Positions 1 through 17,562 are shown, counted from the first letter of the stretch. The stretch is 46,451 bases of DNA from Promethearchaeota archaeon (GCA_016839745.1 JAEOTS010000107.1:1-46451), one strand, 5' to 3'. Notes: a model not told the origin generated them from the letters alone. Translations and numbers: made by a program.

Positions 1-665
1 ATAATACAAACAAACGCTACAGGTGTAAAGATGAGGGAACCTATTGCAATCGGGATAAGTAAATACACCGCAAATCGATTTCTCCAGATATCCAGGACAT
101 CTCCTAATGTCATTTGATCTTGAATTTGAACTTTCGCATACTTTTTTCTCAAGCTAAAGTATCCTTTCTTTATTTTTCTTCCTATTTTTTTTGCTTCTCT
201 CTTTACGCGATCGATTACTCCCTCGTCTGCAGCTTCTTGAAATTCTTCCTTAATTAAGGGAATTATATATAATGTTAAAATCAAAGAGATAACACCGTAA
301 AGAAAAACTAGAAGATCGATCCAATATTGGATACCCGTAGGAGGTATGGCGGGAGGTAAGCTGGAAACTATACTATAAATCGCGTATCCTATGAGGATCC
401 CTGGGACTATCACTTGAAAAATTACAAGAGCCTGAATTTCTTTTTTACTAAATTTTTCTGTAAAACGATTTAGAATCCACAAAATAACATTTGATACAGT
501 CAATATCAAACCAAACCCGGAAAGGAGCTTCATTGTCCAAAAGAAAATTAAGTAAGTAATGTTCAACGCAACAAATCCAAAGATTAATTCAAGAATCATG
601 AAAATAGTAGTTGCAACTAAACCAATTATATAAAATATATCAAATTTTTTGAGATTTAGATTCAT
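1..665 (-). CDS. Multi-pass membrane protein of unknown function (3' end runs off the window)
   Basis: Not in the ORF track. ATG at 665 opens MNLNLKKFDIFYIIGLVATTIFMILELIFG..., which stays open to base 1 with several hydrophobic segments. It lies directly downstream of hisS on the same strand. Confidence 0.75.
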   Translation of the reverse strand, partial: MNLNLKKFDIFYIIGLVATTIFMILELIFGFVALNITYLIFFWTMKLLSGFGLILTVSNVILWILNRFTEKFSKKEIQALVIFQVIVPGILIGYAIYSIVSSLPPAIPPTGIQYWIDLLVFLYGVISLILTLYIIPLIKEEFQEAADEGVIDRVKREAKKIGRKIKKGYFSLRKKYAKVQIQDQMTLGDVLDIWRNRFAVYLLIPIAIGSLIFTPVAFVCI

Positions 666-705
666 AAATAAAATTAATTACTCTAAATCTTAATAATGTT
701 CGTTT

Positions 706-2067: not shown

Positions 2068-2215
2068 TTAAGTTAGCGCTAGTATTATTTAAAAAAACGA
2101 TCATTTACAAATATCTTTTTCGTTTTTATTGAATTTAGGAAGGTTAATATAGCCTTTGCGTGCTAATTGGATTCAAGATAAATATCTATTAAAACAATTA
2201 TGCGTTAATTTAATT

Positions 2216-2593
2216 ATGCCAGATATTAAAAAGATTAACCCAGGAATCCCCGTTGCTGGACCGTATAGTCCAGGTATCAAAGCTGCTAATTTATTATTTA
2301 TTTCTGGTCAAGGCTCGGCTCAAACCGATGAAGATATTAAAGAACAGACTTTAACCACCCTCAATAAAATTAAAAAGATCATAGAAGCTGGAGGAGGTAA
2401 AGTTTCAAACATCGTTAATACAACAGTATTTTTAAAAAATATTAGCGACTTTACGGAGATGAACGGCGTTTACAAGAAATTCTTTGATAATAACGGCGTT
2501 TCCAAATCTTATCCTTCAAGAGCTACAGTGGAGGTCTCCAATTTGCCTCTTCCAAGCATGCTAGTAGAAATAAGTGCAATTGCTGTGTTATAA
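2216..2593 (+). CDS. ridA: RidA/YjgF/UK114 enamine-imine deaminase
   Basis: GPYS, LFISGQ, FxxMNxVY, YPSRATVEVSNLP (catalytic Arg) and LVEISAIA. The ATG at 2216 gives a typical family length; the ORF track over-extends to 2156. Confidence 0.9.
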   Translation: MPDIKKINPGIPVAGPYSPGIKAANLLFISGQGSAQTDEDIKEQTLTTLNKIKKIIEAGGGKVSNIVNTTVFLKNISDFTEMNGVYKKFFDNNGVSKSYPSRATVEVSNLPLPSMLVEISAIAVL

Positions 2594-2697
2594 ATCAATT
2601 TATATTTTTTTCTTTTTATTTAGCCCTTTTAACAAAATCTAAAAAGCAATTTTCATGTATTAACACTAAATTATTTAGTATGTAGGTTGAAGGAGAT

Positions 2698-3882
2698 TTG
2701 ATTTTAAATTCTAGTTACGATACATTAAAAACTCTAGTAAAAAACAAGAAATTTCCAATGGTTATATGCGATCTTGATGCTTTCAATCAAAATCTAGAAA
2801 GAGTCGGCAAATATCTTAGGAAAACAAAAAAAAGCTTACGACTATGTACGAAATCTGTTAGAGTTCCGGAGTTAGTAAACAAGGTCGAAAAACAAGATTT
2901 TGTAAACGGTATTTTTACGTATAACTCCGCTGAAGCTTTATTTTACGCAGAAAACTATAAAACTGAAGATATATTGTTAGGTTATCCTACTATGTCTAAA
3001 GTTGACGTAGAAGAATTATGTCAAGCGGCAAAAATAGAAGGAGTTAATATTACAGTAATGGTAGATGATATTAAACAGATTGATCTTTTAGATAATATCG
3101 CAGCTAAAAATAACATTGTATTAAGTACATTAATCGAAATTGATGTTGCTGTTAAATTACTAGGAAGAAATGTTGGTGTTTATAGAAGTCCGATTAGAAA
3201 ACCTGAAGTTGTAGTGAATCTCGCGCGTATGATTAGTAAAAAATCTAACTTGAATTTTCGAGGAATTATGGGCTATGAAGCTCAGAACGCTAGCATTGGC
3301 GATGACAAAATGCTATTTCGATTTGCAAAGAGGAGATCACGAAAACATGTAAATAAGTGGCGTCAAAATGTTGTAGAAGCCTTAAGTCTTGCGGGATTTC
3401 AACCTGAAGTTGTAAATGGAGGAGGATCTGGATGTTATCAAGAAACAGCAATTGAGCCATCTATTACAGAAATAGGAATAGGATCGTTACTCTTCAAATC
3501 GCATATTTTCGATACAATTAATTCTTTAAGCGAATATGTACCATCTTTATTTTTTGTTCTTCAAATTGTTAGAAAACCACAAACCAATATTGCAACTGCT
3601 TTTTCAGGAGGATATGTGAGTTCAGGAAGCGCGAGAGCTATGCCTATCTCGGTTATTCCTAAAAGTTTAAAGATATCGAAAGATGAAGGATTTGGAGAAG
3701 TTCAAACACCTTTTATATTTGATCCAAAAGCGATTGAACTGAATCTAGGAGATCCAATCTTCTGTAGGTTCGGTAAAGCAGGGGAACCTCTGGAGCATTT
3801 CAATGAAATCCAAGTTTATAGTAAGGGTGAAATAATCGATAAATATAAAACTTATAGAGGATACGGTAATAGATTTTCTTGA
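2698..3882 (+). CDS. Type III PLP-dependent enzyme (alanine racemase fold; D-serine dehydratase/D-threonine aldolase-like)
   Basis: LRLCTKSVR (PLP lysine), GIMGYEAQ, VNGGGSG, EIGIGS, EGFGEVQTP and KAGE motifs. Confidence 0.8.
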   Translation: MILNSSYDTLKTLVKNKKFPMVICDLDAFNQNLERVGKYLRKTKKSLRLCTKSVRVPELVNKVEKQDFVNGIFTYNSAEALFYAENYKTEDILLGYPTMSKVDVEELCQAAKIEGVNITVMVDDIKQIDLLDNIAAKNNIVLSTLIEIDVAVKLLGRNVGVYRSPIRKPEVVVNLARMISKKSNLNFRGIMGYEAQNASIGDDKMLFRFAKRRSRKHVNKWRQNVVEALSLAGFQPEVVNGGGSGCYQETAIEPSITEIGIGSLLFKSHIFDTINSLSEYVPSLFFVLQIVRKPQTNIATAFSGGYVSSGSARAMPISVIPKSLKISKDEGFGEVQTPFIFDPKAIELNLGDPIFCRFGKAGEPLEHFNEIQVYSKGEIIDKYKTYRGYGNRFS

Positions 3883-3927
3883 AAATTCATATAGAATTTA
3901 AAAAAAAGAAAAAGAATTGAAATTTAT

Positions 3928-5763
3928 TTAATATAGATCCTTAATTACAAAATCTAAATTAAGATCAGCTAAAATTTCTTTGAGAGGATAACCCGTTTCA
4001 GGATTCCAGCCCATATTTTCACAATAGCCCTTATAATCTTCTAGATAATCGACAGTTACAGTTCTATCAGGTATTTTATTTTTAATTATCTCTATGCCTT
4101 CTCGTAGAGTGAAAGCTTGCCGTAATGTCTGAATTCTTTGACCCGTTTTAATCGCTTCGGCGATATCTAAGTCCCATCCTACGACGGCCTTAACTAATTC
4201 TAATAGAGGATATTTCTGAAAAACATAAACAAATTCGCATAGTCCAAGACTATGAGTAAATTGCATTATAGCGGTAAAAAGCTTTTCAGCTTCACTTCTA
4301 TCCTCTCCTAGACGTTTAAATTTTCTTGGTAAAGTTATTCCTTCAAATAATCCATTTGGTTTAATTATCGGTCCCATTATGAAGAAATCTAAACTCGCTG
4401 TCGTGTGTTTACCAGGTGTTGGGTCGAAAGCAAAAGTAGTGCCCATGTTTTTATAATATTTTGGTGAATGCATGCCTAACTCTTGACCCATTGAGTGCAT
4501 AGCGTATTCCGATCCTTTCCCTAATTTTTCTGCTGCTATTTTAGTACCATCTGCTAGCAGATCACCAATCCCTTCACGATTGATAATTTTATTTAGTAAT
4601 GCAATTATTGATTCTGAATTTCCCCAAGTCAGTTCGAGTCCATCAGTATCATCCTTAGAAATTAAGTTTTTTTCATAACATTCCATTGCGAAAGCTATCG
4701 TTGTTCCAGCAGAGATCGTATCTATTCCAGCTCGATTGCATATATCGTTAGCTTTAAAAATCGTCATTAGATCGTCGTTAAGCAATAAATGCCCGAAGCT
4801 GGCACAAGTTTCGTATTCAGGCCTATGAGTCTCTTCTAATTCCAGCTCCGGAACTTTCATAATCGCACCACACCGAACCGAGCATGAGAAGCATCCGTAA
4901 GGTTTCTCTTTATATTTGTCGATTTCATGATCAGAAATTTTTGTTAATCGATCATCTGGAAAATCTTCTTTAGTGCCTCCCCAGTTTTTGCATGGAGTAT
5001 CTCCTACTTTGAATAAAATTTCATTTCCCATTGTAGTTCCAAATGTTTTATACCCTATTATTCCAGTTGCTGTAGTAGTATTAATTCTGTCATTGTAATC
5101 CTTTGTGTGGTGGATAAGAGCATCTTTATCTGAAATTTCAACTTTATTTTCTCCTTTGAGAACAATCGCTTTAAGTTTCTTAGATCCCATAACAGCTCCG
5201 AATCCAGATCTTGCCGCTATTCTAGCTTTATCATTAACAATTCCAGATATTAAACTTATATTTTCACCCGCTTGACCAATACTTGCAATTTGAACGCTTC
5301 CATGCTTTTCTTTAAGTTTATCTTCGGTTTGTACGACATCCAAGCCCCATAAGTCTGAAGCATCTAAAATTTGTTTTTCTTCTCCCAATATTGTTATATA
5401 TTTCGGACTACCAGCCATTCCTTTAATTAAAATGGCATCATATCCACATTTTTTAATTTCTGGACCGAAATACCCTCCACAGTTAGCGTCCCCCCATGTT
5501 TTTGTAAGTGGCGATTTACCCGCAACCATGAATCGACCTGTCAGAGGTGCTACAGTTCCCGTTAATAAACCAGGAAAAAATCCAAATATCGATTCTGGAC
5601 TGAGAGCATCTGTTTTGGCGGGCATGTTTTCATAAATAAGCTTAACTGCAAGACCAAGTCCTCCTATATATTGACGATAAATCTCTTCTGAAAGTTTTTC
5701 TTCTTTAAAAGTTTCATCAGATAGATTTACCCACAAGATTTTACCTAAATATCCCTTTGACAT
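3928..5763 (-). CDS. aor: Tungsten-dependent aldehyde:ferredoxin oxidoreductase family protein
   Basis: GYLGKILWVNLS, KSPLT, AARSGFGAVMGSKKLKAI, CFSCSVRC, PEYET and GIDTIS motifs. Confidence 0.93.
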   Translation of the reverse strand: MSKGYLGKILWVNLSDETFKEEKLSEEIYRQYIGGLGLAVKLIYENMPAKTDALSPESIFGFFPGLLTGTVAPLTGRFMVAGKSPLTKTWGDANCGGYFGPEIKKCGYDAILIKGMAGSPKYITILGEEKQILDASDLWGLDVVQTEDKLKEKHGSVQIASIGQAGENISLISGIVNDKARIAARSGFGAVMGSKKLKAIVLKGENKVEISDKDALIHHTKDYNDRINTTTATGIIGYKTFGTTMGNEILFKVGDTPCKNWGGTKEDFPDDRLTKISDHEIDKYKEKPYGCFSCSVRCGAIMKVPELELEETHRPEYETCASFGHLLLNDDLMTIFKANDICNRAGIDTISAGTTIAFAMECYEKNLISKDDTDGLELTWGNSESIIALLNKIINREGIGDLLADGTKIAAEKLGKGSEYAMHSMGQELGMHSPKYYKNMGTTFAFDPTPGKHTTASLDFFIMGPIIKPNGLFEGITLPRKFKRLGEDRSEAEKLFTAIMQFTHSLGLCEFVYVFQKYPLLELVKAVVGWDLDIAEAIKTGQRIQTLRQAFTLREGIEIIKNKIPDRTVTVDYLEDYKGYCENMGWNPETGYPLKEILADLNLDFVIKDLY

Positions 5764-5885
5764 TTTTGTAATCCCCTAATCTGTAATTTTTAGAAATATG
5801 GATCAAGTGAAATTAATAAATAATTTAAATGTTTAGAAAGTTTAAAAATTCATAATAGAAAAGAGTAAAAAATAGTCGATAACTC

Positions 5886-6176
5886 ATGTTTAAACAATTA
5901 AAGAGCTATATTATAATGAATCCAGATGATAATTGTGCTACCGCTCTGGAAGATATACCAAAACATGCAGAACTACGTGTAAATGAAAATAGCATTATTA
6001 TTTACCAAAAAATCTCCTTAGGTCATAAATTCGCTTTATTAGACATTAACGAAGGTGATTTGGTAATAAAATATGGTCAGTCAATAGGAATTGCAACGGA
6101 AGATATAAAGAAAGGAGAATGGATTCATACTCATAATCTCACAAGTCAGTATCTCATGGAGGTTTTGAAGGAATGA
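5886..6176 (+). CDS. SAF-domain small subunit of a UxaA/SuyA-type dehydratase/lyase
   Basis: DNCATAL...GHKFAL..I..G..VIKYGQSIG.A..DI..GEWIHTHNL; 4-nt overlap with the next gene. Confidence 0.88.
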   Translation: MFKQLKSYIIMNPDDNCATALEDIPKHAELRVNENSIIIYQKISLGHKFALLDINEGDLVIKYGQSIGIATEDIKKGEWIHTHNLTSQYLMEVLKE

Positions 6177-7360
6177 AAGAAGAATTTATGGGATATCAAA
6201 GATCGAATAAAGAAGTAGGAATTAGAAACCATATAGCAATAATTTCATCTGTTGTATGCGTAAATCATGTAGTTCAACAAATCGCTAATAAAGTTAAGGA
6301 TGCTGTGCCTATTACTCATCCTTTAGGATGTGGTCAATTCGGACCTGACTATAGCAACACACTAAATACATTAATTGGTTTAGGAGCGAATCCTAATGTG
6401 TTCGGAACTGTAGTTGTTGGTTTAGGGTGCGAAAATATCAGTAGCAAATTATTAGCTAAAAACATCAAGAAATCAAAAAAACCAGTTGAATTTTTTGATT
6501 TACAAGAAGTTCAAGGAGGATCACCTGCAGCGATAGAAAAAGGAATTATGCTTGGGAATAGACTTTCAGAGGAAGCCAGAGAGTTGAAAAGGGAACCGTT
6601 CGATTACTCTCACATCGTTTTAGGATTAGAATGCGGAGGATCTGATTCAATTTCTGGAATATCCGCAAATCCTGCCTTAGGAATTGTATCTGATAGAATC
6701 GTTAAGTTTGGAGGAACTTCAATTTTACCCGAATTTACAGAATGGATTGGGACTGAACATTTGCTTATTAAAAGAGCTATTGATAAAAGTGTCGCAGAAC
6801 AAATACATGAGGTACTCTCCGGTTTTTTAGAAAATCTGAAAACCTTAGGGATTAAATTTTTTGGAGTACAACCAACTCCTGGAAATATTCGGGGCGGATT
6901 GACAACAATTGAAGAAAAAAGTTTAGGTACCATAGCAAAGGCGGGAAAATCACCTATTCAAGGGTTGATTCAATATACTAATAAACCTAAAGGGAAAGGT
7001 TTGTGGTTGATGATCGAACCAGGTTTGGATGTCGAATCTATGACTGGCTTAGCTGGAGTAGGCGCAAACATTATTGTCATGACGACAGGAAGAGGTAGTC
7101 CTTGTGGGAATCCTTTAGTTCCTGTGATAAAACTATGTGGCAATCTAAAAACTTGCGATTGGATGGCAGAAAACATTGATGTTGATATGAGCCCAATTAT
7201 TAAAGGAGAAAAATCCGTGGAAGAACTTGCAGAAGTTCTATGGTTAAAAATGAAGAGCACATTGAATGGAGAAGAAACTCAAGCAGAAAAATTAGGATTT
7301 AATGACATAGCGATCTGGAGAAATACAGCGTCACCGTTTCAATATATGCACTGTAAGTAA
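6173..7360 (+). CDS. UxaA/GarD/SuyB family large subunit (altronate dehydratase or sulfolactate sulfo-lyase-like)
   Basis: GIRNH, HPLGCGQ, VGLGCE, GLECGGSDSISG, PTPGNIRGGLTTIEEKSLG and TTGRG motifs. Confidence 0.9.
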   Translation: MKEEFMGYQRSNKEVGIRNHIAIISSVVCVNHVVQQIANKVKDAVPITHPLGCGQFGPDYSNTLNTLIGLGANPNVFGTVVVGLGCENISSKLLAKNIKKSKKPVEFFDLQEVQGGSPAAIEKGIMLGNRLSEEARELKREPFDYSHIVLGLECGGSDSISGISANPALGIVSDRIVKFGGTSILPEFTEWIGTEHLLIKRAIDKSVAEQIHEVLSGFLENLKTLGIKFFGVQPTPGNIRGGLTTIEEKSLGTIAKAGKSPIQGLIQYTNKPKGKGLWLMIEPGLDVESMTGLAGVGANIIVMTTGRGSPCGNPLVPVIKLCGNLKTCDWMAENIDVDMSPIIKGEKSVEELAEVLWLKMKSTLNGEETQAEKLGFNDIAIWRNTASPFQYMHCK

Positions 7361-7372
7361 GAACAAGATAAA

Positions 7373-8674
7373 TTATAAAAATGGATTTTTATCTTTAAAG
7401 ATCTTATCTTTATATTCTTCCAGATCTGGGGGCGCTAAACCTTTATCTGTTGCTTCTTTTTTCAATGATTTTAGAATTTCACCACAGTTTATTGAAACAG
7501 GACACCAATGATAACAATTTTCACATCCCGTGCATAGAAATAGCCCACTATTTACAGCAGATTCAATTCCATTATGAATATAATCTCTTATGATTGCAGT
7601 AGCACCTAATCCATACTTGGAAGCGAAAATATTCCCAAACGCTCGAGAGGCAGTACAGGGAAAAATGCAGGATTTACAGCCAAGGCATTTTAGAATATCT
7701 GCGTAAACTAGATTTTCTTTAGCAGCTTTAGTTCGCCAATCGTCAACAAGGATAACAACCACTTCCTTTGCTCCGTACATGCCTTGAACACTTGTTCCTT
7801 GTATATCAGATGTATTTGATGGTCCTGAAATGAGACTTATATAGTTAAAAGAAACATTATTTATCCTAGATTGCAATTGTGTCATTAAAACTGCATCCAA
7901 GATATTAGGCACGATTTTAGTGATGCCACACACAACTATATGCTTTTCAGTTGCTCTTGTGATAAGACTGATATTACCTTCATTTTCTCCTAAGACAATT
8001 GTTCCATCTTCAGCAGAAATTGCATTCGCAGATGTTAGAGAGACTTTTACATCATTGAGTAATTCTTTCCTGAAGGTAGTTCTAAAATACTCGACGATCG
8101 CTTGAGCTTTAGGTTCAAGTTCTACTCCATACACCTCCTTAATTTTATTTGCGATTTCTTCTTCGGTAAAATGAGCTCCCGGACCAACCTGAAAGCTTGG
8201 TAAAGTATAATTAAATAATTGAACAAGAACATCTCCTAAATCGGTTTCTTTTATCTTTATTTGATTCTTTTTCAAAACATCAATAATCCCGATATCTTTA
8301 GCTTCGGTGGATTTTGACTTATATATGATTTTGTTATCAGCTAACTCTTTCATGAAAATCTTTTGAGCTTCTTCATTAGTTTTTGCGTAATGAACAATGA
8401 AGTTCTTTTTACGCATTATATTAATGCATTTTTCAACATAGGATTCCATATGATTAACAAACTCTTCCCGCATTACGATAAATTTATCTTTATTTCGTTC
8501 AACGAATTCTCGACTTGTATCTTCATATAAATACCTTAAATCATGTTGCCTAGTTTTTATCGTACAAGCCATTTTCCAAAACTTTCCAAATTGGTTTTCT
8601 AAAGTTCCTTCTTCTTGGGAAGTTTCGATCTTTTTCTTAACATTTTCATATAATTCTTTTCCCTTATCAACCAT
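7373..8674 (-). CDS. LutB/LldF-like LUD-domain iron-sulfur protein
   Basis: KSKS, ETDLG, ENEGNI and ISGPSNTSDI motifs; two C-terminal CxxCxxCxxxC motifs. Confidence 0.85.
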   Translation of the reverse strand: MVDKGKELYENVKKKIETSQEEGTLENQFGKFWKMACTIKTRQHDLRYLYEDTSREFVERNKDKFIVMREEFVNHMESYVEKCINIMRKKNFIVHYAKTNEEAQKIFMKELADNKIIYKSKSTEAKDIGIIDVLKKNQIKIKETDLGDVLVQLFNYTLPSFQVGPGAHFTEEEIANKIKEVYGVELEPKAQAIVEYFRTTFRKELLNDVKVSLTSANAISAEDGTIVLGENEGNISLITRATEKHIVVCGITKIVPNILDAVLMTQLQSRINNVSFNYISLISGPSNTSDIQGTSVQGMYGAKEVVVILVDDWRTKAAKENLVYADILKCLGCKSCIFPCTASRAFGNIFASKYGLGATAIIRDYIHNGIESAVNSGLFLCTGCENCYHWCPVSINCGEILKSLKKEATDKGLAPPDLEEYKDKIFKDKNPFL

Positions 8675-9407
8675 CTAGTGGATCAACTCCTTCCATAATG
8701 TTTACAATAAAATCTTCAAATTTGACCACTGGTTTTTTTATTTGATGCTCTTTTTTTATCCGTACCAAAGCTGTATAGCAAAATGGGCAGGCCGTTAATA
8801 AAATTTTTCCACGATTCAATTGATCAAAAATGAGTTTTGAATTGTAATCGCTATTTTCCTTAAATATAGAATATACACCCCCTCCAGCACCGCAACAAAT
8901 GCTATTAGTTTTATTATTTTCCATTTCCTTGAGTTCAATATTGTCGATTGAATTAAGAATTTCTCTAGGTTCTTCAATTATAGGTACTACAGCATTTCTT
9001 AAGTGACATGCATCGTGATAACTTACTTTTAGCTTTTTCCCAGAATATTTCAAATCTAATTTTGAAAGATTTTCTGGTTCTACTAAAAATTGAAGAAAGT
9101 GTTTTACTTCAATTTTAAATTCATTTCCTAAGAACTGAGTGTAGTATTTTGTTAAGTAATTATAGCATCCAGCACATGTAGTCACGATCTCGGAAACATT
9201 ATTCATTTTAAACCAATTATTAACAAATTCCACATGTTCCTTTAACTCGATATCGCTTCCAATATGATATGATAAAGCCCCACAACAAGGAGCATCGTTT
9301 AAAACTGTGTAGCTTGGATCGATAGTTTGAATAATTTTAATAGCGTTATCACACGTATTCTTATATTTGGAATTAGACAAGCAACCTAAGAATATTAGTT
9401 TTTTCAT
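8667..9407 (-). CDS. CCG-domain (LutA/GlcF/HdrB-like) Fe-S protein
   Basis: FLGC, CCG, TTCAGC, YHDACHL, CCGAGGG and TACPFC motifs; overlaps the lutB-like start. Confidence 0.88.
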   Translation of the reverse strand: MKKLIFLGCLSNSKYKNTCDNAIKIIQTIDPSYTVLNDAPCCGALSYHIGSDIELKEHVEFVNNWFKMNNVSEIVTTCAGCYNYLTKYYTQFLGNEFKIEVKHFLQFLVEPENLSKLDLKYSGKKLKVSYHDACHLRNAVVPIIEEPREILNSIDNIELKEMENNKTNSICCGAGGGVYSIFKENSDYNSKLIFDQLNRGKILLTACPFCYTALVRIKKEHQIKKPVVKFEDFIVNIMEGVDPLDG

Positions 9408-9545
9408 AGTAAGTATAAAATTTGGTTTTTAAAAAAAATTTGATATTATTTTATTTAAGCTTATATCTACTTATACCTAATATTAAATTGATGGAAATTT
9501 AATACATCTGAAATATTTAATAATTTAGTTGAAAGAAGAAGTGAG

Positions 9546-9827
9546 TTGATTACAATACCAAAATTATTGGAAAATGAAGAGAAGAAATTTTCACTGTTTC
9601 TCAATAACAATCGATGCGGGGGATGCCAAATGTGTATATCTTTATGTCCCACGGGTATTTTAGAACTCAGTGATGAATTGAATATGAGAATTGCTTATAT
9701 CCCTCAAGTTAAAGAAGGTAAAGCTAAGTACTGCACGGGTTGTAGAAGATGCGAATATGGATGCCCCGATTGGTGTATTTATGTTTTAGATGAAGAAGAA
9801 ATTAAAACTAAAAAAGCTAAAACTTAG
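9546..9827 (+). CDS. korD: 2-oxoacid:ferredoxin oxidoreductase delta subunit (2x[4Fe-4S])
   Basis: CGGCQMCISLCP and CTGCRRCEYGCPDWCI; first gene of the OFOR operon. Confidence 0.85.
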   Translation: MITIPKLLENEEKKFSLFLNNNRCGGCQMCISLCPTGILELSDELNMRIAYIPQVKEGKAKYCTGCRRCEYGCPDWCIYVLDEEEIKTKKAKT

Positions 9828-9844
9828 TGTGGTGAAATATTTAA

Positions 9845-11017
9845 ATGAATGAAAAAAATACGAAAAGATATTTACCAGAAGGTAAATACGTTATGATGGG
9901 AAATGTTGCGATGGCAGAAGGAGCATTAGTTGCAGGTTTAAATTTCTTTGGGGGGTATCCGATAACTCCTTCCACTGAAGTTATCGAACATCTTGCTAAG
10001 CGATTACCAGAAGTTGGAGGAACTTGTCTTCAAATGGAAGATGAGTTAGCATCAATTAATGCCGTTATTGGAGCGTCTTTAGCTGGAGCAAAAGCAATGA
10101 CCGCGACTTCTGGACCTGGCCTTTCTTTAATGGTTGAAACTATCTCGATGGCAGCAAATCTTGAAATACCCTTTGTTTTTTGCGATGTTCAACGCGTTGG
10201 TCCTGGTAGTCACGGACCCGTAACCGCACCGCATCATAACGATATAGGATTAATACGATTTGCAGGTCATGGAGAATTTCAAGTTATTGCGTTAGCTCCT
10301 ATGAACTGCCAAGAACTTTTTGATTTGACAATAACAGCGTTTAATTTCGCTGAAACTTATCGTTGTCCTGTGTTTATTCTCTCTGATGCCTATTTGGGAC
10401 ATATTCATGAGCCAGTTTACATTCCACCAAAGAAAGAAGTAATTAAAAGAGTGGTTTCACGTGAGTTACCCGAAGATTATTCTGAAATTTATTCATATAA
10501 AGATGATGAAACTGAAGAATATGTAATTCCTAAACCTCCAATATTAGGTACGGATTATTACCCACCTACATCTCTTCAATTGCCTCATAATACACATGGT
10601 CTTCCGACATCTGATGTCTTATCATTTATTGAAATGTTGATTGAAAAAGTAAAATCAAACATTGACAAAATCTCATTGACCGAAGAATATCGATTAGAAG
10701 ATGCAGATATCGTCATTATCGCCTATGGGCTACCTGTGAGAGCTAGTTATCGAGCAGTCGATGAAGCTCGGGAAGAGGGAATAAAAGTGGGAGTATTTAG
10801 ATTAATAACTGTTTGGCCATTTCCTGACGAGAAAATAAGAAATGTTGTGAAAGATGCGAAGGCAATAATTGTACCTGAATTAAATTATACGGGATTTATT
10901 GCAGAGCAAGTAGAAAGAGTCAAAGAACTTGAAACTCCGATTACAAAAATCCCAAAAGTAGGTGTTTTACATCATCCAGATGATATATTAAATATTATAA
11001 AGGAGGTATCAAAATAA
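9845..11017 (+). CDS. korA: 2-oxoacid:ferredoxin oxidoreductase alpha subunit
   Basis: GYPITPSTE, QMEDE, TATSGPGLSLM and VQRVGP motifs. Confidence 0.93.
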   Translation: MNEKNTKRYLPEGKYVMMGNVAMAEGALVAGLNFFGGYPITPSTEVIEHLAKRLPEVGGTCLQMEDELASINAVIGASLAGAKAMTATSGPGLSLMVETISMAANLEIPFVFCDVQRVGPGSHGPVTAPHHNDIGLIRFAGHGEFQVIALAPMNCQELFDLTITAFNFAETYRCPVFILSDAYLGHIHEPVYIPPKKEVIKRVVSRELPEDYSEIYSYKDDETEEYVIPKPPILGTDYYPPTSLQLPHNTHGLPTSDVLSFIEMLIEKVKSNIDKISLTEEYRLEDADIVIIAYGLPVRASYRAVDEAREEGIKVGVFRLITVWPFPDEKIRNVVKDAKAIIVPELNYTGFIAEQVERVKELETPITKIPKVGVLHHPDDILNIIKEVSK

Positions 11018-11940
11018 TGTCAGATCTAGGTCCACGATATCCAACAGAAAAACCTGACCATCCTTATGTTCAATATTCATTTGGAGGAAATCTCTATGGT
11101 AGTTATAATTCTCTCTTTTGTGCCGGTTGTGGATATGGAATAATAGGTCATATTTTTACACGGGTGTTCGAAGACGAGAAATTAGATCATAAATTATATC
11201 CATTAATTATTGGTATTGGATGTTATACTCAAATAGTAACTTTAGCTCATCATAAGGCTCAGAAAATTACTACACTTCACGGTCGTGCTCCAGCAGTAGC
11301 TACGGGAGTGAAAATGGCAAATCCTATTTTGAAACCAATTGTATTTACTGGCGATGGAGATTGCTTAGGAATTGGAGGAAATCACTTTATTCACATCTGT
11401 CGTAGAAATGTTGATTGCACTATTCTCATATTTAATAATAGTATATATGGAATGACGGGGGGTCAAAGTGCTCCAACTACTTTATATGGCGCAAAAAGTA
11501 CAACTACTCCTTATAAAGTTTTTGAAGAACGAAGCGATGCTGTGAAACTTGCCTTAGCTGCAGGTGCTACATATGTCGCCAGAACCACGGTAGCGCATCC
11601 ACGAACACTAATGAAATACTTTAAAAAAGCTTTAAGACATAAAGGAACTTCGGTGATTGAAGTAATAACCCCTTGTTTAACATATTTTGGTAGTAAAAAT
11701 CTTGATAATCTTGGTGCAGAAGATTTGGATATTCCGGGTAATAAGATGGATACAGGGGGAAAAATGATAGATTGGATAAAAAGAAATACAATAAGAAAAA
11801 ATCAAGCTAAATTTATGGATGAGGATGAACTTTTTAATAGGTATGTTATTGGTGAATTTCGCTACGATACTAGCAAACCCGAATACTCTGAAGTCTATTC
11901 CAAGATTCAGAAAACTGCTATGGGAGAGGATTGGAAATGA
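11017..11940 (+). CDS. korB: 2-oxoacid:ferredoxin oxidoreductase beta (TPP-binding) subunit
   Basis: FCAGCG, GIGC, HGRA, GDGD, NNSIYGMTGGQ and PC motifs. Confidence 0.93.
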   Translation: MSDLGPRYPTEKPDHPYVQYSFGGNLYGSYNSLFCAGCGYGIIGHIFTRVFEDEKLDHKLYPLIIGIGCYTQIVTLAHHKAQKITTLHGRAPAVATGVKMANPILKPIVFTGDGDCLGIGGNHFIHICRRNVDCTILIFNNSIYGMTGGQSAPTTLYGAKSTTTPYKVFEERSDAVKLALAAGATYVARTTVAHPRTLMKYFKKALRHKGTSVIEVITPCLTYFGSKNLDNLGAEDLDIPGNKMDTGGKMIDWIKRNTIRKNQAKFMDEDELFNRYVIGEFRYDTSKPEYSEVYSKIQKTAMGEDWK

Positions 11941-12536
11941 GTAGATATGAAGTTAGAATCGTCGGATATGGTGGACAAGGAGTAATTACACTCTCAAAAA
12001 TGATAATTAACGCAAGTTCATTATATGGAAACTTAGCAGCTACACAAACTGAAGCATACGGCTCATCTGCTCGAGGAGGAAAGTGCTGGGCTGAGGTGGT
12101 TATAGATTTAGATAAGAGTGTAAAATCGATAGATTATCCAAAAGCTATGCAGCCTTACGACTTCTTAGTTGTACTGTCCGAGGAAGCTGCTAAAAATGTA
12201 AAACCAGAACATCTTAAAAAGGACGAAAACACAGGATATCTGATATGGGACACTTCTACAATAAAAACATTCCGAGCTACAAAACGAATTGATAAAGCAA
12301 TTGGGATTCCAATCCAAAAAATCGCAGTAGAGATCTTTAATAAAATGGTGTTTGGAAATTCTATTTTATTTGGAGTTTTTACTACTCTTTCAAGAATTTT
12401 TTCTGAGCAATCAGCTATTGAAACCATTAAGAAATTCGTTCCGAGTGAAACTATTAATCAAAATTTAGAGGCGTTTGAATTAGGAAAACAAGAAGCAGAA
12501 AAATTTATTAGCAAGCTAAAGGAGGAGAAAGCTTAG
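11937..12536 (+). CDS. korC: 2-oxoacid:ferredoxin oxidoreductase gamma subunit
   Basis: GYGGQGVI and YGSSARGG motifs; ATGA overlap with the beta-subunit stop. Confidence 0.92.
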   Translation: MSRYEVRIVGYGGQGVITLSKMIINASSLYGNLAATQTEAYGSSARGGKCWAEVVIDLDKSVKSIDYPKAMQPYDFLVVLSEEAAKNVKPEHLKKDENTGYLIWDTSTIKTFRATKRIDKAIGIPIQKIAVEIFNKMVFGNSILFGVFTTLSRIFSEQSAIETIKKFVPSETINQNLEAFELGKQEAEKFISKLKEEKA

Positions 12537-12537
12537 G

Positions 12538-14346
12538 ATGCGTATCGGAAAAGTTCAAAAGGGCTGGAAAGAGTTATCTGAAGAGATAATTCAGACCGGA
12601 AAATGCGTGTATTGTGGCGCGTGTGGGGCATTCTGTGCAAACATTCAATTTGATAAAGAAAAAGAGATCCCTATCGAAGATGGTTCTTGTAAGGATGTGA
12701 ACACATGTAAAGATGGTTTTGGACTCTGTTATAATCTTTGTCCAAAAACGGAAACTGAAGCAATTCCTTTATCGTTATTAGATAAGTGGGTTTTTGGAAA
12801 AAAACACGATAAGATTTTGGGACATTATCTAGAAATTGCTTCAATAAAGCTCACAGATAAAGCAAGAGAAAGTGTGCCAGAGAACGCTGGTCCATTGTCA
12901 GGGCTATTATGGTTGGCTATGGAAAACGGTTTGATCGATTGTTCTATTATTACTGATAAAGACGAAAACTTTAAGCCTATTCCGATAATAGCCCAAAATT
13001 CACAAGATATTTTCAAAGGAGCTGGATATAAACCAAGTCAAGGTCCATTACTTTCACTTTTAGGAGAGGCCATCAATAAAGAAAACGTAGATATTGCCGT
13101 TGTAGGAACTCCCTGTCAGGTTCAGGCTCTAAGGAAATTACAGAACCATCCAGCATTTGATTACGAGGCGTATGATTTAGTAACATTAGCTATCGGGACC
13201 TTTTGTTTTGGTACTTATTATAATCGATTATTAGATATCACATTTAACGAATTCGGGATTAAATCTAGCGATATAGAAAAAATAAATACTAATAAAGATA
13301 ATTTTTACATGAAAATAACCAGTAATTCTACTGTAAAGGATATTCCACTAAATTATCTATATGATAAAGCGATTAGAAATGCTTGTTTTTCTTGTTCTGA
13401 TTACACGGCATCGTTCGCGGATTTATCAATTGGAAAATTTGGTAGTAAAGATGGGTGGAACACTTTAATTGTAAGAACAGAAAGAGGTAAAGAAGTTTTT
13501 GATTTAGCCGTTGAAAAAGGAATTATCGAAATAGAACCTCTAGGGGACACTATGAAGGAGCTTGTTTTAGATTTAACCCGAAATAAAACTGACATAGTAA
13601 AGATTTTATCCATTAAAGAACACTCCTCGGAAATAAGAAGTTTTGTCATTAGAAACTCGAGGATTGCGGATGCATACAAACCAGGAATGTTTGTCATATT
13701 ATGGCTACCTGATATTGACTTTCTCCCAATGTCCATCTCGAACATAGATGAAGACCTCATTGAAATAACTGTTAAGAAAATAGGAGAGGGAACATCCAAA
13801 TTGTTCGAATTGAGTGAAGGAGACTCAATTGGAGTTCGAGGACCTTTTGGGAATTCGTTTAATTATGAAGATTCTAAAAATATTCTTGTTGTAGGAGGAG
13901 GAATGGGAATCGCAGCGTTAACAACCTTAATTGATATTTTGAAACAAAATAAGGCAAATGTAAAAGTTGCTATTGGAGCTAAAGATGAAGATTCGTTGAT
14001 TTTTGCTGAAAGATTAATAGGATTGATTCCAGATACTATGTGTACTACAGAAGATGGATCTATAGGAAAGAAATGTGTTGTTACTGATCCAGTTGAAGAA
14101 TTAATTAATAACGAGAACTTTGATTTGATTGCTACATGTGGTCCCGAAGTTATGATGAAAAAAGTTCTTGAACTAGCAGATGCAAGGAATATCCAAATCC
14201 AAGCCAGTTTAGAAAGAAAAATGAAATGTGGGTTAGGATTATGCGGTTCTTGTTGTATTGGAAGTAATAATAATATTACTGTTTGCAAAGATGGCCCCGT
14301 CTTTAATTCAGATCAATTAAAAGCTTTTACTCAATTTGGAAGTTAG
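12538..14346 (+). CDS. Fusion: ferredoxin + coenzyme F420 hydrogenase beta (FrhB) domain + PyrK/NfnA-like FAD/NAD(P)/[2Fe-2S] domain
   Basis: N-terminal CVYCGACGAFC. FrhB motifs VVGTPCQ, IGTFC and CFSCSDYTASFADLSIG..GS.DGWNTLIVRTERG. C-terminal KPGMFVILW, RGPFGN, GGGMG, CGPEVMM and CGLGLCGSC...CKDGPVF. Confidence 0.88.
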   Translation: MRIGKVQKGWKELSEEIIQTGKCVYCGACGAFCANIQFDKEKEIPIEDGSCKDVNTCKDGFGLCYNLCPKTETEAIPLSLLDKWVFGKKHDKILGHYLEIASIKLTDKARESVPENAGPLSGLLWLAMENGLIDCSIITDKDENFKPIPIIAQNSQDIFKGAGYKPSQGPLLSLLGEAINKENVDIAVVGTPCQVQALRKLQNHPAFDYEAYDLVTLAIGTFCFGTYYNRLLDITFNEFGIKSSDIEKINTNKDNFYMKITSNSTVKDIPLNYLYDKAIRNACFSCSDYTASFADLSIGKFGSKDGWNTLIVRTERGKEVFDLAVEKGIIEIEPLGDTMKELVLDLTRNKTDIVKILSIKEHSSEIRSFVIRNSRIADAYKPGMFVILWLPDIDFLPMSISNIDEDLIEITVKKIGEGTSKLFELSEGDSIGVRGPFGNSFNYEDSKNILVVGGGMGIAALTTLIDILKQNKANVKVAIGAKDEDSLIFAERLIGLIPDTMCTTEDGSIGKKCVVTDPVEELINNENFDLIATCGPEVMMKKVLELADARNIQIQASLERKMKCGLGLCGSCCIGSNNNITVCKDGPVFNSDQLKAFTQFGS

Positions 14347-14347
14347 C

Positions 14348-15298
14348 GTGGAAAATTATAATTTAAAAAAAGGAATTATTTTTGCTTCGATTTGTATTTT
14401 TACAATTGGACTACAGCCAGTAATTTCTATTGCACGACCCGATATAATCGATCCTTATTTATTTGGAGCTATTACAGCCTTGATTGAAGCTATACTCTTT
14501 TTCCCTATATTTTTTATAGAAAGGGGTAAATTAAAAAGAGACTTATTAAATGATCCAGTATCAAATAAAAAGAATTCATCTCTAATTCACGGTTGGAAAA
14601 AAAAATCCAATATAAAAGTTATTACAATTATAGGATTAACTTTTAGTGTAGTACCGATTTTACTTTATATTGGTTACGAACTTGCAGGACCAATTATAAG
14701 CTCCTTGACTATGAAATCTGAGATCATCTTTGCTTTAATGTTTGGATTTATATTCTTAAAAGAGAAGATATCTAAAGTCCAAATTCTGTTTTGCGTTCTA
14801 TTGTTTTTTGGACTTGTGATTGCGATTACTGATGGTTCCTTAAATATACTTAAGTTTAATCTAGGTGTTCTTATTCTTCTCTTTAGTGTGATACTTTTTA
14901 CTTTAGTACATACACTTACAAAAATAGGCTTTGAGCGAAATGAATTATTTCCCTCTCAAGTAGTTTTCCTAAGGAATTTAATATCAGGGGTACTGCTTAC
15001 AATACTTTATTTTCTAATCTTTCCACTAGAAAACTTCGCTATCATTATTGATCCTTATAATTTTATATTTTTTCTACTCATGGCGATTGACTACGGAGCA
15101 TCTCTATATCTTTGGTATAAAGCTTTAACATATATTCAAATTGGGAAATCAACCATTATCATCTCTCTCACACCAATAGTCTCCGCTTTTTTCTCATTCA
15201 TAATCCTTGGAGAGATCTTCACATTTTTTCATTTAATTGGTACTATTATTATAATATTCTCGATTTTTATGATTATTAGGGAAAAAAAGAATAACTAA
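14348..15298 (+). CDS. EamA/DMT family transporter
   Basis: About 10 hydrophobic segments in two repeats; FLKEKI and ILGE motifs. Probable GTG start at 14348. Confidence 0.85.
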   Translation: MENYNLKKGIIFASICIFTIGLQPVISIARPDIIDPYLFGAITALIEAILFFPIFFIERGKLKRDLLNDPVSNKKNSSLIHGWKKKSNIKVITIIGLTFSVVPILLYIGYELAGPIISSLTMKSEIIFALMFGFIFLKEKISKVQILFCVLLFFGLVIAITDGSLNILKFNLGVLILLFSVILFTLVHTLTKIGFERNELFPSQVVFLRNLISGVLLTILYFLIFPLENFAIIIDPYNFIFFLLMAIDYGASLYLWYKALTYIQIGKSTIIISLTPIVSAFFSFIILGEIFTFFHLIGTIIIIFSIFMIIREKKNN

Positions 15299-15348: not shown

Positions 15349-16509
15349 TTAAAGCTTTAAGGGGTATACACCAAATTTATTAGCCGCTTCAATCATCCAA
15401 TTTAATCGTTCAACAGAAATTTGTGGATGAAAATTAGCAGGCGATATCATAGCCCCTCCATTAGGTCCTAATGCTTTAATTGCATGTTTTACTGCGTCTG
15501 TGACCTCTTCTTTAGTACCCTTTACGAGAATGTGTCTTGTATCAATATTTCCTGATAAGCATAGTTTATCACCAACTCTTTTCTTTACATCATATAAATT
15601 AACAAGCGGAGGTTCTAAGCATTGCAATCCATCAAAACCGCATTCTACAACAAAATCTAATTGACTAGTAACATCTCCATCTGTATGCAATATGTATTTA
15701 CCCCCCCAGCTATGAATGGCTTCTGCTACTTCTTGATAACACGGTTTTACATAAGATTCAAAATATTTAGGATGGATCATAGGTCCTCCACTATGAGCTA
15801 TATCTCCGCCCTCCAAAAAGATTTTAGCACCACAATCATGATAAGCTTTAAAAGTTGTGAGAGTATAATCAGTTGTGAACCTGAATCGTTCCTTAATAAG
15901 CTCAGAATCATTTCTAAGTGCTCGCGCAAACGCCGGCATTCCCATTCCCTGCCAAACAGGCGGAAAAACTGATGTTAAAGCGTTTTGGGCGAAAATACAA
16001 ATATCATCCTTTATATCACGGCATTTTCTCAAAACGCCCTTGTAAAATTTTTTGGCTTTATTATATTCATCTTTCAAATCTGGTCTGGGATACGATTCCC
16101 AATCTTCTCGATTTTTAATATATCCACCATAATAATCAGGATAAGGGTTGCCATCGATATTTCTGACCCTATGTCTCTTTCCAAACACATCTGTCATTTC
16201 TGTTTGACTTTCAAGGATAAAAGGGATGTACTGTAATCCCACTCCATCAAATCCAAGGTTGTATCCTGCTCTTAACGCTTTTGAAAAGGTTGAAATTTCA
16301 ATATCGAGGAGAATATCATTAATCTTGTCCAACCATTCATCTGGATATTTCTGTTCCATCTCATCAAATATATCAAAAGCAGTTCGTTTCGGGCGACCTA
16401 AGATTTGATCAGCGACATTTCCATCAATATTTATAGTATGTGTTGGAATTCTATCTGCTTCTTCAAGATTTAATGCCGTCCATATCCGTTCAAAACTATT
16501 CATAATCAA
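15349..16509 (-). CDS. Uroporphyrinogen decarboxylase-like (URO-D/MtaA-CmuA superfamily) protein
   Basis: MNSFERIWTAL..EEADRIP, HTDGD, GFDGLQCLEP, LCLSGNID and terminal ISPAN motifs. Confidence 0.82.
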   Translation of the reverse strand: MIMNSFERIWTALNLEEADRIPTHTINIDGNVADQILGRPKRTAFDIFDEMEQKYPDEWLDKINDILLDIEISTFSKALRAGYNLGFDGVGLQYIPFILESQTEMTDVFGKRHRVRNIDGNPYPDYYGGYIKNREDWESYPRPDLKDEYNKAKKFYKGVLRKCRDIKDDICIFAQNALTSVFPPVWQGMGMPAFARALRNDSELIKERFRFTTDYTLTTFKAYHDCGAKIFLEGGDIAHSGGPMIHPKYFESYVKPCYQEVAEAIHSWGGKYILHTDGDVTSQLDFVVECGFDGLQCLEPPLVNLYDVKKRVGDKLCLSGNIDTRHILVKGTKEEVTDAVKHAIKALGPNGGAMISPANFHPQISVERLNWMIEAANKFGVYPLKL

Positions 16510-16620: not shown

Positions 16621-17562
16621 GTGAGTAATGATTTAAGAAAAGGCTTAATTTTTGGAATTATAGGAATTGTGCTCATTGGATTTCAACCGATTGTGGCAAA
16701 TTCAGCGATGTTTATAGATTCTCACGCCTTTGCTGCTATGACATGTTTGATCGAGGCAATTATATTTCTTCCTATCATGCTTCTAGAGTTAAAAGTGAAT
16801 AAAAGCAGATACGATGGAAATACCGAATTACTAGTGAATAAATCAATTCTGAAAAGTTTGAAAAAAAATTTTTGGTTATTGATTTTTATCGGGATAATCT
16901 TTAGCGTTAATCAACTTCTATTTTTTGTAGGATATCGATTAGCTGGTGCTATAAACGGATCGTTGACTCAGAAAACTTCCGTTTTTTTTGGATTACTGTA
17001 TGGTTACTTGTTATTAAAAGAAAAAATTTCAAGACTTCAAATCGTATTTTCAATCGTGCTATTTTTCGGTTTAGTAATAGCAATAACTCAAGGTTCACTC
17101 AATTTTCTGGCATTTAACATCGATATTTTAATTGGTGTATTGCTTGTATTATTGATTACAGCTTTATGGATGTTTGGTCACACTCTAACAAAAAATTTGT
17201 TTAGTAAGAAAGAATTTACTCCTATTCAGATGGTATTTGTTCGAAATGTCTTGAGTGGGTTCATATTGATAAGTACTTTCTTAATTTTTTCACCGTTAGG
17301 TCTTAGCGTTTTTTATAATTCTCTTAATTGGTTCTTTTTTATAGTAATGGGAACCGTTTATGGAGTTGGACTATTCTTTTGGTATAAAACATTATCATAT
17401 TTGGATGTATCGAACGCCACAATAGTCCTTTCACCCACTCCAATTGTTACTGCCATATTTGCAACTATAATGCTAGGAGAGCATTTTACGATTTTTTCTT
17501 TAATTGGTTCAGTAATTGTTATCTTATCAATTGCTATAATAGTTAAACAAAAAAAGGATTGA
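16621..17562 (+). CDS. EamA/DMT family transporter (paralog of 14348..15298)
   Basis: Same architecture; shares the KEKIS..QI.F...LFFGLVIAIT.GSLN and QxVFxRN segments. Confidence 0.85.
   Translation: MSNDLRKGLIFGIIGIVLIGFQPIVANSAMFIDSHAFAAMTCLIEAIIFLPIMLLELKVNKSRYDGNTELLVNKSILKSLKKNFWLLIFIGIIFSVNQLLFFVGYRLAGAINGSLTQKTSVFFGLLYGYLLLKEKISRLQIVFSIVLFFGLVIAITQGSLNFLAFNIDILIGVLLVLLITALWMFGHTLTKNLFSKKEFTPIQMVFVRNVLSGFILISTFLIFSPLGLSVFYNSLNWFFFIVMGTVYGVGLFFWYKTLSYLDVSNATIVLSPTPIVTAIFATIMLGEHFTIFSLIGSVIVILSIAIIVKQKKD

Follow-up and report, generated by a model that had tools for sequence, protein, structure and literature searches.

We analysed a 46,451-nucleotide (nt) stretch of DNA from Promethearchaeota archaeon (GCA_016839745.1, JAEOTS010000107.1:1-46451; hereafter the window), whose source genome is a 3.5-Mb metagenome-assembled genome (MAG) of 192 contigs with 89% completeness and 5.8% contamination. 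An open reading frame (ORF) check of the window revealed five plus-strand ORFs packed head to tail, in which korD, korA, korB and korC, the predicted genes of a 2-oxoacid:ferredoxin oxidoreductase (OFOR), are followed by a gene that joins a ferredoxin domain, a FrhB-type module and a PyrK-type module in a single chain (Table 1). The stop codon of korC (TAG, 12534-12536) and the start codon of the fusion gene (ATG, 12538) are separated by a gap of 1 nt, and a Shine-Dalgarno-like motif, AGGAGGAG, is located ahead of the fusion gene at 12520-12527.

Table 1. Genes of the korDABC-fusion operon and domains of the fusion protein, with positions counted from the first nucleotide of the window.
Feature	Position	Strand	Description
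korD	9546-9827	+	TTG start; OFOR delta subunit, ferredoxin-like, two CxxCxxCxxxCP motifs (2x[4Fe-4S])
korA	9845-11017	+	OFOR alpha subunit; Pfam POR_N, PFOR_II, Transketolase_C
korB	11017-11940	+	OFOR beta subunit (binds thiamine pyrophosphate, TPP); Pfam TPP_enzyme_C; start overlaps korA stop
korC	11931-12536	+	OFOR gamma subunit; Pfam POR; 10-nt overlap with korB
Fusion gene	12538-14346	+	602 amino acids (aa); ferredoxin domain, FrhB-type module and PyrK-type module
Fusion residues 1-90, N-terminal ferredoxin domain	12538-12807	+	Aligns with the ferredoxin domain of 8RIU_B
Fusion residues 91-348, FrhB-type F420-reductase core	12808-13581	+	Pfam FrhB_FdhB_N/C, one [4Fe-4S]
Fusion residues 349-602 and stop, PyrK-type module	13582-14346	+	Flavin adenine dinucleotide (FAD) barrel, GGGxGxA nucleotide loop 453-459, CGP 534-536

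Based on the Pfam and NCBIfam matches of all four subunits, korDABC is predicted to encode a complete delta-alpha-beta-gamma OFOR of the Kor/Oor type. KorD is recognised by Fer4_7 and related Pfam families as a 4Fe-4S dicluster protein, its best NCBIfam match is OorD (under the cut-off of that model), and all eight of its cysteines are invariant among 18 orthologues; it is presumed to be the electron exit of the OFOR core. KorA matches NF006412, '2-oxoacid:acceptor oxidoreductase subunit alpha', with 411.8 bits (cut-off 411). The top NCBIfam matches of KorB are beta models of the Kor/Oor type and that of KorC is NF006323, all of them under their respective cut-offs. Since the best Kor/Oor-type models are mostly under their cut-offs, the substrate of this OFOR is not assignable.

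The fusion protein begins with a ferredoxin domain in which the cysteines at positions 23, 26, 29, 33, 51, 57, 64 and 68 are invariant in 20 fusions, indicating two [4Fe-4S] clusters. The core that follows is matched by FrhB_FdhB_N (residues 117-175, 37.9 bits, Pfam cut-off 22) and FrhB_FdhB_C (residues 186-336, E 2.5e-38, 131.7 bits, Pfam cut-off 23.3), and its invariant C193, C223, C283 and C286, which align with cysteines of 8RIU_B, 8RJA_E and FrhB chains, indicate one further [4Fe-4S] cluster. We infer that this core also contains a site for FAD and F420. In the PyrK-type module, NAD_binding_1 matches residues 452-543 weakly and DHODB_Fe-S_bind matches residues 559-594 (E 1.2e-12). The [2Fe-2S] ligands C564, C569, C572 and C583 and the cysteine of the CGP motif are invariant, and the GGGxG loop and the CGP motif as a whole vary little or not at all. 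The 17 cluster-ligand cysteines are thus all retained across 20 homologues with 39-94% identity, and each fusion protein is expected to carry three [4Fe-4S], one [2Fe-2S] and two FAD.

A preliminary description of this DNA, made from the sequence alone, had reported korDABC followed after 1 nt by a 602-aa ORF and had read a ferredoxin motif, a FrhB module and a PyrK-like module in that ORF, and both observations are borne out, the former by the ORF coordinates and the latter by Pfam, NCBIfam and the conservation of cysteines. Pfam scans of the window genes also confirmed its statement that no pyrD, hydrogenase or gltD gene lies in the neighbourhood of the operon. No Pyr_redox_2 or Fer4_20 protein, as expected of an NfnB partner, is encoded in the operon or by the neighbouring genes. 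The ftr gene that it placed in the window is indeed there (41758-42681), though 27 kb away from the operon.

When we compared the protein with equivalog models, the PyrK equivalog NF000796 was passed over residues 351-601 (256.4 bits, cut-off 224). FpoF-type models cover residues 16-333, including the N-terminal ferredoxin motif, and neither the FrhB equivalog TIGR03289 (173.3 bits, cut-off 331.5) nor the FpoF equivalog NF040616 (114.6 bits, cut-off 475) was reached. The AlphaFold2 model of the fusion (pLDDT 89.3, pTM 0.84) places only about 3 residues between the last helix of the FrhB module (337-348) and the first strand of the PyrK module (352-361), suggesting a rigid two-module body. In Foldseek comparisons, the N-terminal half matched 8riu_B with a TM(target) of 0.81 and 8rja_E with a TM of 0.76, and the C-terminal half matched 5jca_S (NfnI-S) and 5ksw_B (PyrK) with TM(target) values of 0.82-0.84, or 0.76-0.84 when the sulfhydrogenase gamma subunit is included. 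Sequence comparison with solved structures gave 8RIU_B (E 2.3e-56), 8RJA_E (8e-45), FrhB 3ZFS_C (2e-37) and HCAR 5DQR (1.5e-11) for the N-terminal half, and NfnA 4YLF_A (7e-35, residues 353-594) and PyrK 1EP3_B (3e-23) for the C-terminal half. Residues 12-351 of the fusion align with residues 11-339 of 8RIU_B, and the best solved relatives cover residues 8-363.

The best matches of the N-terminal half in both sequence and fold are the zeta subunit of the carbon monoxide dehydrogenase (CODH) complex CODH/ACDS (8RIU) and FwdI of the formylmethanofuran dehydrogenase Fwd (8RJA), both of Candidatus Ethanoperedens thermophilum, which have been shown to be F420 reductases (Lemaire et al., PMC11493965). 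These subunits consist of a two-cluster ferredoxin domain (1-83) and a FrhB-type [4Fe-4S]/FAD domain (84-349), their genes lie within the operon of the host enzyme, and they are anchored to the host through the ferredoxin domain (PMC11493965). They let normally ferredoxin-dependent enzymes reduce F420, and ferredoxin is used eight-fold more slowly (PMC11493965). The N-terminal half of the Lokiarchaeial fusion shows the same layout, a 2x[4Fe-4S] ferredoxin domain and then a FrhB core in a single chain, and its gene likewise lies in the operon of an enzyme that releases CO2 and normally depends on ferredoxin. By analogy with these subunits, the ferredoxin domain of the fusion likely serves for docking and electron entry. 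However, the host of the fusion is an OFOR and not CODH or Fwd, the lineage is Asgard and not related to Methanosarcinales, and in place of the short dimerisation tail at the C-terminus of zeta the fusion has a complete PyrK module of 250 aa with a [2Fe-2S] cluster, a second FAD and an NAD(P) site. Furthermore, binding and activity were measured for zeta and FwdI, whereas those of the Lokiarchaeial fusion are predicted.

A FrhB-family gene beside an OFOR has also been described in ANME-1, whose FrhB paralogues are predicted to give F420 reduction in clusters for CODH and pyruvate:ferredoxin oxidoreductase (PFOR) (Chadwick et al. 2022, PMC9012536). FrhB6 of ANME-1 is similar to the fusion in that it belongs to an OFOR cluster in which 2-oxoacid oxidation is predicted to be wired to F420; compared by description only, it differs in the type of OFOR and in phylum, and no PyrK module is mentioned (PMC9012536). 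In deltaproteobacterial MAGs, a Fer4-FrhB-like gene is found directly upstream of IorAB-type genes: in one of them (locus L151) it occupies 7001-8125 and is followed by an IorA-like gene (8163-10109) and an IorB-like gene (10106-10717), and three further loci (L140, L142 and L148) have the same arrangement, the IorA-like protein consisting of POR_N, TPP_C and Fer4 domains. These gene neighbourhoods suggest that FrhB-type exit subunits may occur on OFORs in bacteria too.

The fusion shares with FpoF/FqoF, the input subunit of F420H2 dehydrogenase, the layout of a ferredoxin domain and a FrhB core, but it lacks the context of an Fpo/Fqo membrane complex, carries the additional PyrK module and scores far under the FpoF cut-off. 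Its C-terminal half has the same three-part fold and [2Fe-2S] ligands as PyrK of class 1B dihydroorotate dehydrogenase (1EP1-3, 5KSW), although here the module has no PyrD partner, is fused behind a FrhB module and is sited in an OFOR operon. The same half also agrees in fold and cofactors with NfnA of the NADH-dependent ferredoxin:NADP+ oxidoreductase NfnAB (4YLF, 5JCA), its best solved sequence match; unlike NfnAB, the fusion is without NfnB, which holds the bifurcating FAD and 2x[4Fe-4S], and a FrhB module stands in its place. A further system to consider is the phenylglyoxylate:NAD+ oxidoreductase PadEFGHI, in which a fifth flavoprotein on a four-subunit OFOR core hands electrons to pyridine nucleotide. 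Since this fifth subunit, PadH, is not known to be a PyrK- or FrhB-type protein, it seems that PadEFGHI is an analogue and not a homologue of the kor-fusion enzyme. NCBIfam includes an NADH-dependent phenylglyoxylate dehydrogenase built on OFOR subunits (NF045762/64/66), and the scores of the Kor subunits against the Pad models are weak.

Based on these comparisons, we suggest that the fusion belongs to a known kind of protein, the FrhB-type reductase subunit bound to a ferredoxin enzyme, and that the Kor-type OFOR as host and the whole PyrK module would be its new elements. The literature searched, which covers few subscription journals, yielded no description of this fusion in Asgard or Lokiarchaeial archaea. 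The preliminary description had named no characterised enzyme with this architecture; this holds for the form with OFOR and PyrK, but precedents exist in the CODH and Fwd enzymes (PMC11493965) and in the ANME-1 PFOR clusters (PMC9012536).

The fusion is widespread within one Lokiarchaeial order. When we surveyed 400 genomes of the phylum, it was found in 80 of the 134 species genomes of the window's family, in all four genomes of a sister family that includes Candidatus Sigynarchaeum springense (about 40% identity), and in the single sampled genome (MAG CR_4) of a further family of the same order, and the other families of the phylum match with their PyrK only. Close homologues bear Lokiarchaeota or Promethearchaeota names, and no fusion-bearing record returned stems from a cultured strain. 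A word-index search gave a list of 120 relatives that are complete or nearly so in length, each at least 68% identical and with the same Pfam architecture, and in a library clustered at 50% identity only three clusters span both halves (P0121, P0123 and the contig-truncated P0124). Since the fusion is one uninterrupted frame in more than 80 other genomes, it is not the result of a frameshift or misassembly. Some apparent relatives were rejected. Two loci in candidate division WOR-3, with an apparent match over residues 5-599, consist of separate PyrK-like, Fer4 and FrhB-like genes in an HdrA-MvhD cluster, and the other long PyrK-containing library matches that were domain-scanned are either PyrK-PyrD fusions or PyrK beside a part that matches no FrhB model.

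The gene order korD-A-B-C-fusion is preserved in 20 of 20 fetched loci. Among the 53 fusion loci of the genome collection, korC, together with korDAB where the contig reaches, is directly upstream wherever upstream DNA is present; two of the 53 have extra DNA between korB and korC. The strict order holds also in the sister family, and the two halves of the fusion have evolved at about the same rate. When the genomes were counted by genus, the KorA orthologue and the fusion were present in 30 and 32 of 41 genomes (g1), in 27 and 27 of 54 (g12), in one and one of six (g5) and in none of four (g6), and near-complete genomes without the fusion are also without the KorA orthologue. One genome (G188) that appeared to have a kor operon without the fusion was set aside, as a scaffold gap of 100 N lies inside its korB. 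The fixed order and the shared presence and absence indicate that the five genes behave as one accessory unit. The preliminary description had considered that the fusion might be confined to this assembly; the search for its domain architecture and kor synteny found it in many others, with kor genes upstream wherever upstream DNA is present.

The genome encodes cofH at two loci, each with a cofG-like neighbour, as well as cofD, cofE and the F420-dependent Mtd, and therefore the organism is equipped to make and use F420. The two near-equal cofH loci lie on separate contigs (C104 and C106) with cofG-like neighbours of 456 and 460 bits, and may reflect a true duplication or, in this MAG, redundancy from strains or contamination. 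In this 89%-complete genome, no match over cut-off was obtained for Fno and no match for FrhA, meaning that both were not found and not that they are proven absent. In total, the genome has 13 FrhB-type matches, 6 PyrK-type [2Fe-2S] domains and 6-7 OFOR alpha genes, and among the latter only korA of the window operon carries the fusion. The sole pyrD is on another contig (C160) with its own 289-aa pyrK directly downstream, so the fusion is not simply the PyrD partner, a reading that the preliminary description had kept in mind. The C-terminal half of the fusion is 41% identical to this PyrK and 28-32% identical to the other PyrK/NfnA-like paralogues, and its closeness to the former points to an origin from pyrK.

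FrhB-type and PyrK- or Nfn-type parts are also combined elsewhere in the genome. One contig (C145, locus L069) has three co-directional genes (373-3132, 3278-4162 and 4164-6890), whose products are 919 aa (Fer4-GltD-like-CCG, HdrB-like), 294 aa (NfnA/PyrK-like) and 908 aa (a Fer4-FrhB-GltD/NfnB-like fusion) long. Judged from these domains, the trio is a candidate F420-linked Nfn-type complex, and the pairing of Fer4-FrhB-GltD with an NfnA-like protein indicates that this organism combines FrhB with Nfn parts. Another contig (C80, locus L070, 3723-10130, minus strand) encodes an HdrA-like protein of 1003 aa, MvhD/FlpD, an unknown 342-aa protein, a Fer4_22 protein and a PyrK-like protein of 294 aa; a very similar cluster with a FrhB-like gene in addition is present in candidate division WOR-3 bacteria (L129).

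Based on these observations, we propose, with about even confidence for and against, that the fusion is a fifth, docked exit subunit that would make this OFOR reduce F420 and NAD(P)+, bypassing free ferredoxin. KorDABC and the fusion would form one five-subunit enzyme, in which the N-terminal ferredoxin domain of the fusion would dock on the distal cluster side of the OFOR, at KorD. Electrons from the oxidative decarboxylation of the 2-oxoacid would pass through TPP and the KorB cluster to the two KorD clusters, then through the two [4Fe-4S] of the fusion's ferredoxin domain and the [4Fe-4S] of the FrhB core to its FAD and on to F420, and the PyrK module, with its [2Fe-2S] and then its FAD, would provide a second hydride exit of the same chain to NAD(P)+. 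Such an enzyme would act as a 2-oxoacid:F420/NAD(P)+ oxidoreductase without free ferredoxin, and electron exchange between F420H2 and NAD(P)+ would be a by-product. It would supply F420H2 for Mtd and Mer of the tetrahydromethanopterin (H4MPT) Wood-Ljungdahl pathway, plus NAD(P)H, in an organism where Frh hydrogenase and Fno were not found. Physical binding to the OFOR, the use of F420 and NAD(P), the sequence of cofactors and the flow direction are what we infer in this scheme, on top of the observed gene order, co-occurrence, folds, ligand conservation and capacity for F420 synthesis. The flow to F420 would be downhill, from about -500 mV for 2-oxoacid/acyl-CoA to -340 mV for F420 (PMC9012536, PMC10667645). 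We favour the docked exit subunit because only one of the 6-7 OFORs carries the fusion, because the best solved relatives of its N-terminal half are operon-encoded, bound via the ferredoxin domain and measured to reduce F420, and because FrhB6 of ANME-1 (PMC9012536) and the deltaproteobacterial Fer4-FrhB genes also adjoin OFORs. The 1-nt spacing, the invariant ligand cysteines and nucleotide-binding motifs, the similar conservation of both halves, the rigid body of the AlphaFold2 model and the F420 genes of the organism point the same way.

The domain content alone would also suffice for a free-standing hub, co-expressed with the OFOR and unbound, that oxidises free ferredoxin in the manner of FpoF/FqoF and reduces F420 and NAD(P)+ as a substitute for Fno. 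FpoF-type models do match the N-terminal half, Fno was not found in the genome, and soluble FpoF/FqoF has been proposed as a ferredoxin:F420 oxidoreductase in fermentative archaea with the Wood-Ljungdahl pathway (PMC10667645). However, the gains and losses of a general exchanger should not strictly follow those of one among 6-7 OFORs, its position would not be fixed behind korC over 40-94% divergence, and the nearest solved relatives are bound subunits, so that we regard a free hub as rather unlikely. Because of the strict order, the co-occurrence and the binding of the nearest solved relatives to CODH and Fwd, a dedicated exit subunit fits better. Thus, from the ferredoxin-F420-NAD(P) hub of the preliminary description, the domain reading and the link to F420 and NAD(P) are retained, with good support from sequence, fold and ligand conservation, while the free hub gives way to the dedicated subunit. 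The preliminary description had also allowed for a confurcating enzyme. In an Nfn-like bifurcation or confurcation, the FAD of the FrhB module would be the branching flavin and F420H2 the donor, with one branch, of high potential, running through [2Fe-2S] and FAD to NAD(P)+ and the other, of low potential, through [4Fe-4S] to ferredoxin or, by way of KorD, into the OFOR; in the confurcating direction a 2-oxoacid or reduced ferredoxin together with NAD(P)H would reduce two F420, and in the other direction F420H2 would power reductive 2-oxoacid synthesis without free ferredoxin. The mid-point potentials would allow this (PMC10667645, PMC9012536), the cofactor set could copy the topology of NfnAB, the C-terminal half resembles NfnA, and an NfnA-like gene adjoins the Fer4-FrhB-GltD fusion on contig C145. 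Nevertheless, none of the analyses supports a confurcating enzyme. The fusion is without an NfnB/GltD- or HdrA-type flavin module of the kind known to bifurcate, and its C-terminal half is closer to the true PyrK than to the NfnA-like paralogues. We know of no FrhB-family FAD that has been shown to bifurcate, and we consider this mechanism improbable.

It should be also considered that the FrhB-type FAD may serve another substrate or be only an internal redox centre, in which case the complex would be a 2-oxoacid:NAD(P)+ oxidoreductase independent of F420, comparable to the NAD-linked OFORs of five subunits. The unmet FrhB and FpoF cut-offs agree with this, as do the inclusion of the non-F420 HCAR in the FrhB family (the 5DQR match), the FrhB-like genes that adjoin OFORs in deltaproteobacterial MAGs, from organisms that may or may not make F420, and the NADH-dependent phenylglyoxylate dehydrogenase that NCBIfam describes on OFOR subunits. 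On the other hand, the closest relatives by far are proven F420 reductases, and the genome makes F420 and has Mtd. In the sulfhydrogenase beta-gamma, the Fe-S chain alone feeds the PyrK module; a complete and conserved FrhB core would not be needed for that task and argues for a substrate site of its own, and we therefore give an F420-independent complex only a small chance. The name in the public records, 'dihydroorotate dehydrogenase electron transfer subunit', would make the protein an ordinary PyrK of dihydroorotate dehydrogenase B, with which the passing of NF000796 agrees. This annotation can hardly be correct, since pyrD is present elsewhere beside a pyrK of its own and since a Fer4-FrhB half of 350 aa and strict kor synteny have no place in pyrimidine synthesis.

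Here, we need to consider several points that weigh against the docked exit subunit. The FrhB half is under both the FrhB and the FpoF equivalog cut-offs and is therefore a distinct subfamily, F420 is not the substrate of every member of the FrhB family (HCAR is an exception), and the genome has as many as 13 FrhB-type matches. The docking itself is proposed from synteny and analogy. The incompleteness of the genome limits the argument from the absence of Fno and FrhA. In terms of energy, a syntrophic fermenter that passes electrons of -500 mV to carriers of -340/-320 mV gives away what could have served the production of H2 or formate. Finally, the scheme offers no explanation why one enzyme needs both hydride exits.

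In three metatranscriptome studies of sediments, short contigs agree with parts of korA, korB and the PyrK half of the fusion at 0-1 mismatches, which hints weakly at transcription of these genes in situ; regions without contigs are uninformative, no contig spans the junction of korC and the fusion gene, and the contigs may stem from carried-over DNA. In the best DNA holder run (X1), a contig connects 14261 directly with 14347, so that 85 nt of the fusion gene's 3' end are skipped. The shorter side of this junction is only 23 nt, and either a strain variant or an assembly artefact may underlie it.

The operon is flanked by genes on both sides. Divergent from korD on the minus strand (7373-9407) are genes for a LutB-like protein (LUD and Fer4, 433 aa) and a LutA-like protein (two CCG domains, 246 aa), a pair that adjoins the operon in about half of 20 related loci and may feed the OFOR by oxidising lactate or a 2-hydroxyacid. 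Further upstream (2156-7360), RidA (L-PSP), an Ala_racemase_N-type pyridoxal phosphate protein, an aldehyde:ferredoxin oxidoreductase and a UxaA-type (GD_AH) dehydratase are encoded; since these enzymes make or handle 2-oxoacids and aldehydes, the region may be a catabolic island. Downstream, an EamA transporter gene (14336-15298) overlaps the stop of the fusion gene by 11 nt and is followed by a gene for a URO-D/MtaA-like methyltransferase (15349-16509, minus strand) and a second EamA gene (16621-17562). EamA genes are found downstream in many relatives, with variable spacing.

With regard to annotation, hundreds of database entries named as the dihydroorotate dehydrogenase electron transfer subunit carry a wrong label, by which pathway reconstructions are distorted. 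If the docked exit subunit is correct, the principle of a bolted-on F420 reductase would extend from CODH and Fwd to the OFOR family, with a second hydride exit added, and if the improbable bifurcation were true, the protein would represent a new class of flavin-based bifurcating enzyme, the first with a FrhB-type bifurcating flavin. Loki-type Asgard archaea have been modelled as fermenters of amino acids and 2-oxoacids, whose reduced ferredoxin would be directed to H2, formate or the H4MPT Wood-Ljungdahl pathway as a sink (PMC7015854, PMC10667645). This sink requires F420H2, for which fermentation is no obvious supplier; the literature leaves its origin open for fermenting archaea that carry the pathway, and soluble FqoF or HdrA-MvhD-FrhB complexes have been proposed (PMC10667645). 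With an F420/NAD(P) exit built into an OFOR, F420H2 and NAD(P)H would be obtained directly in a lineage that is central to syntrophy models of eukaryogenesis.

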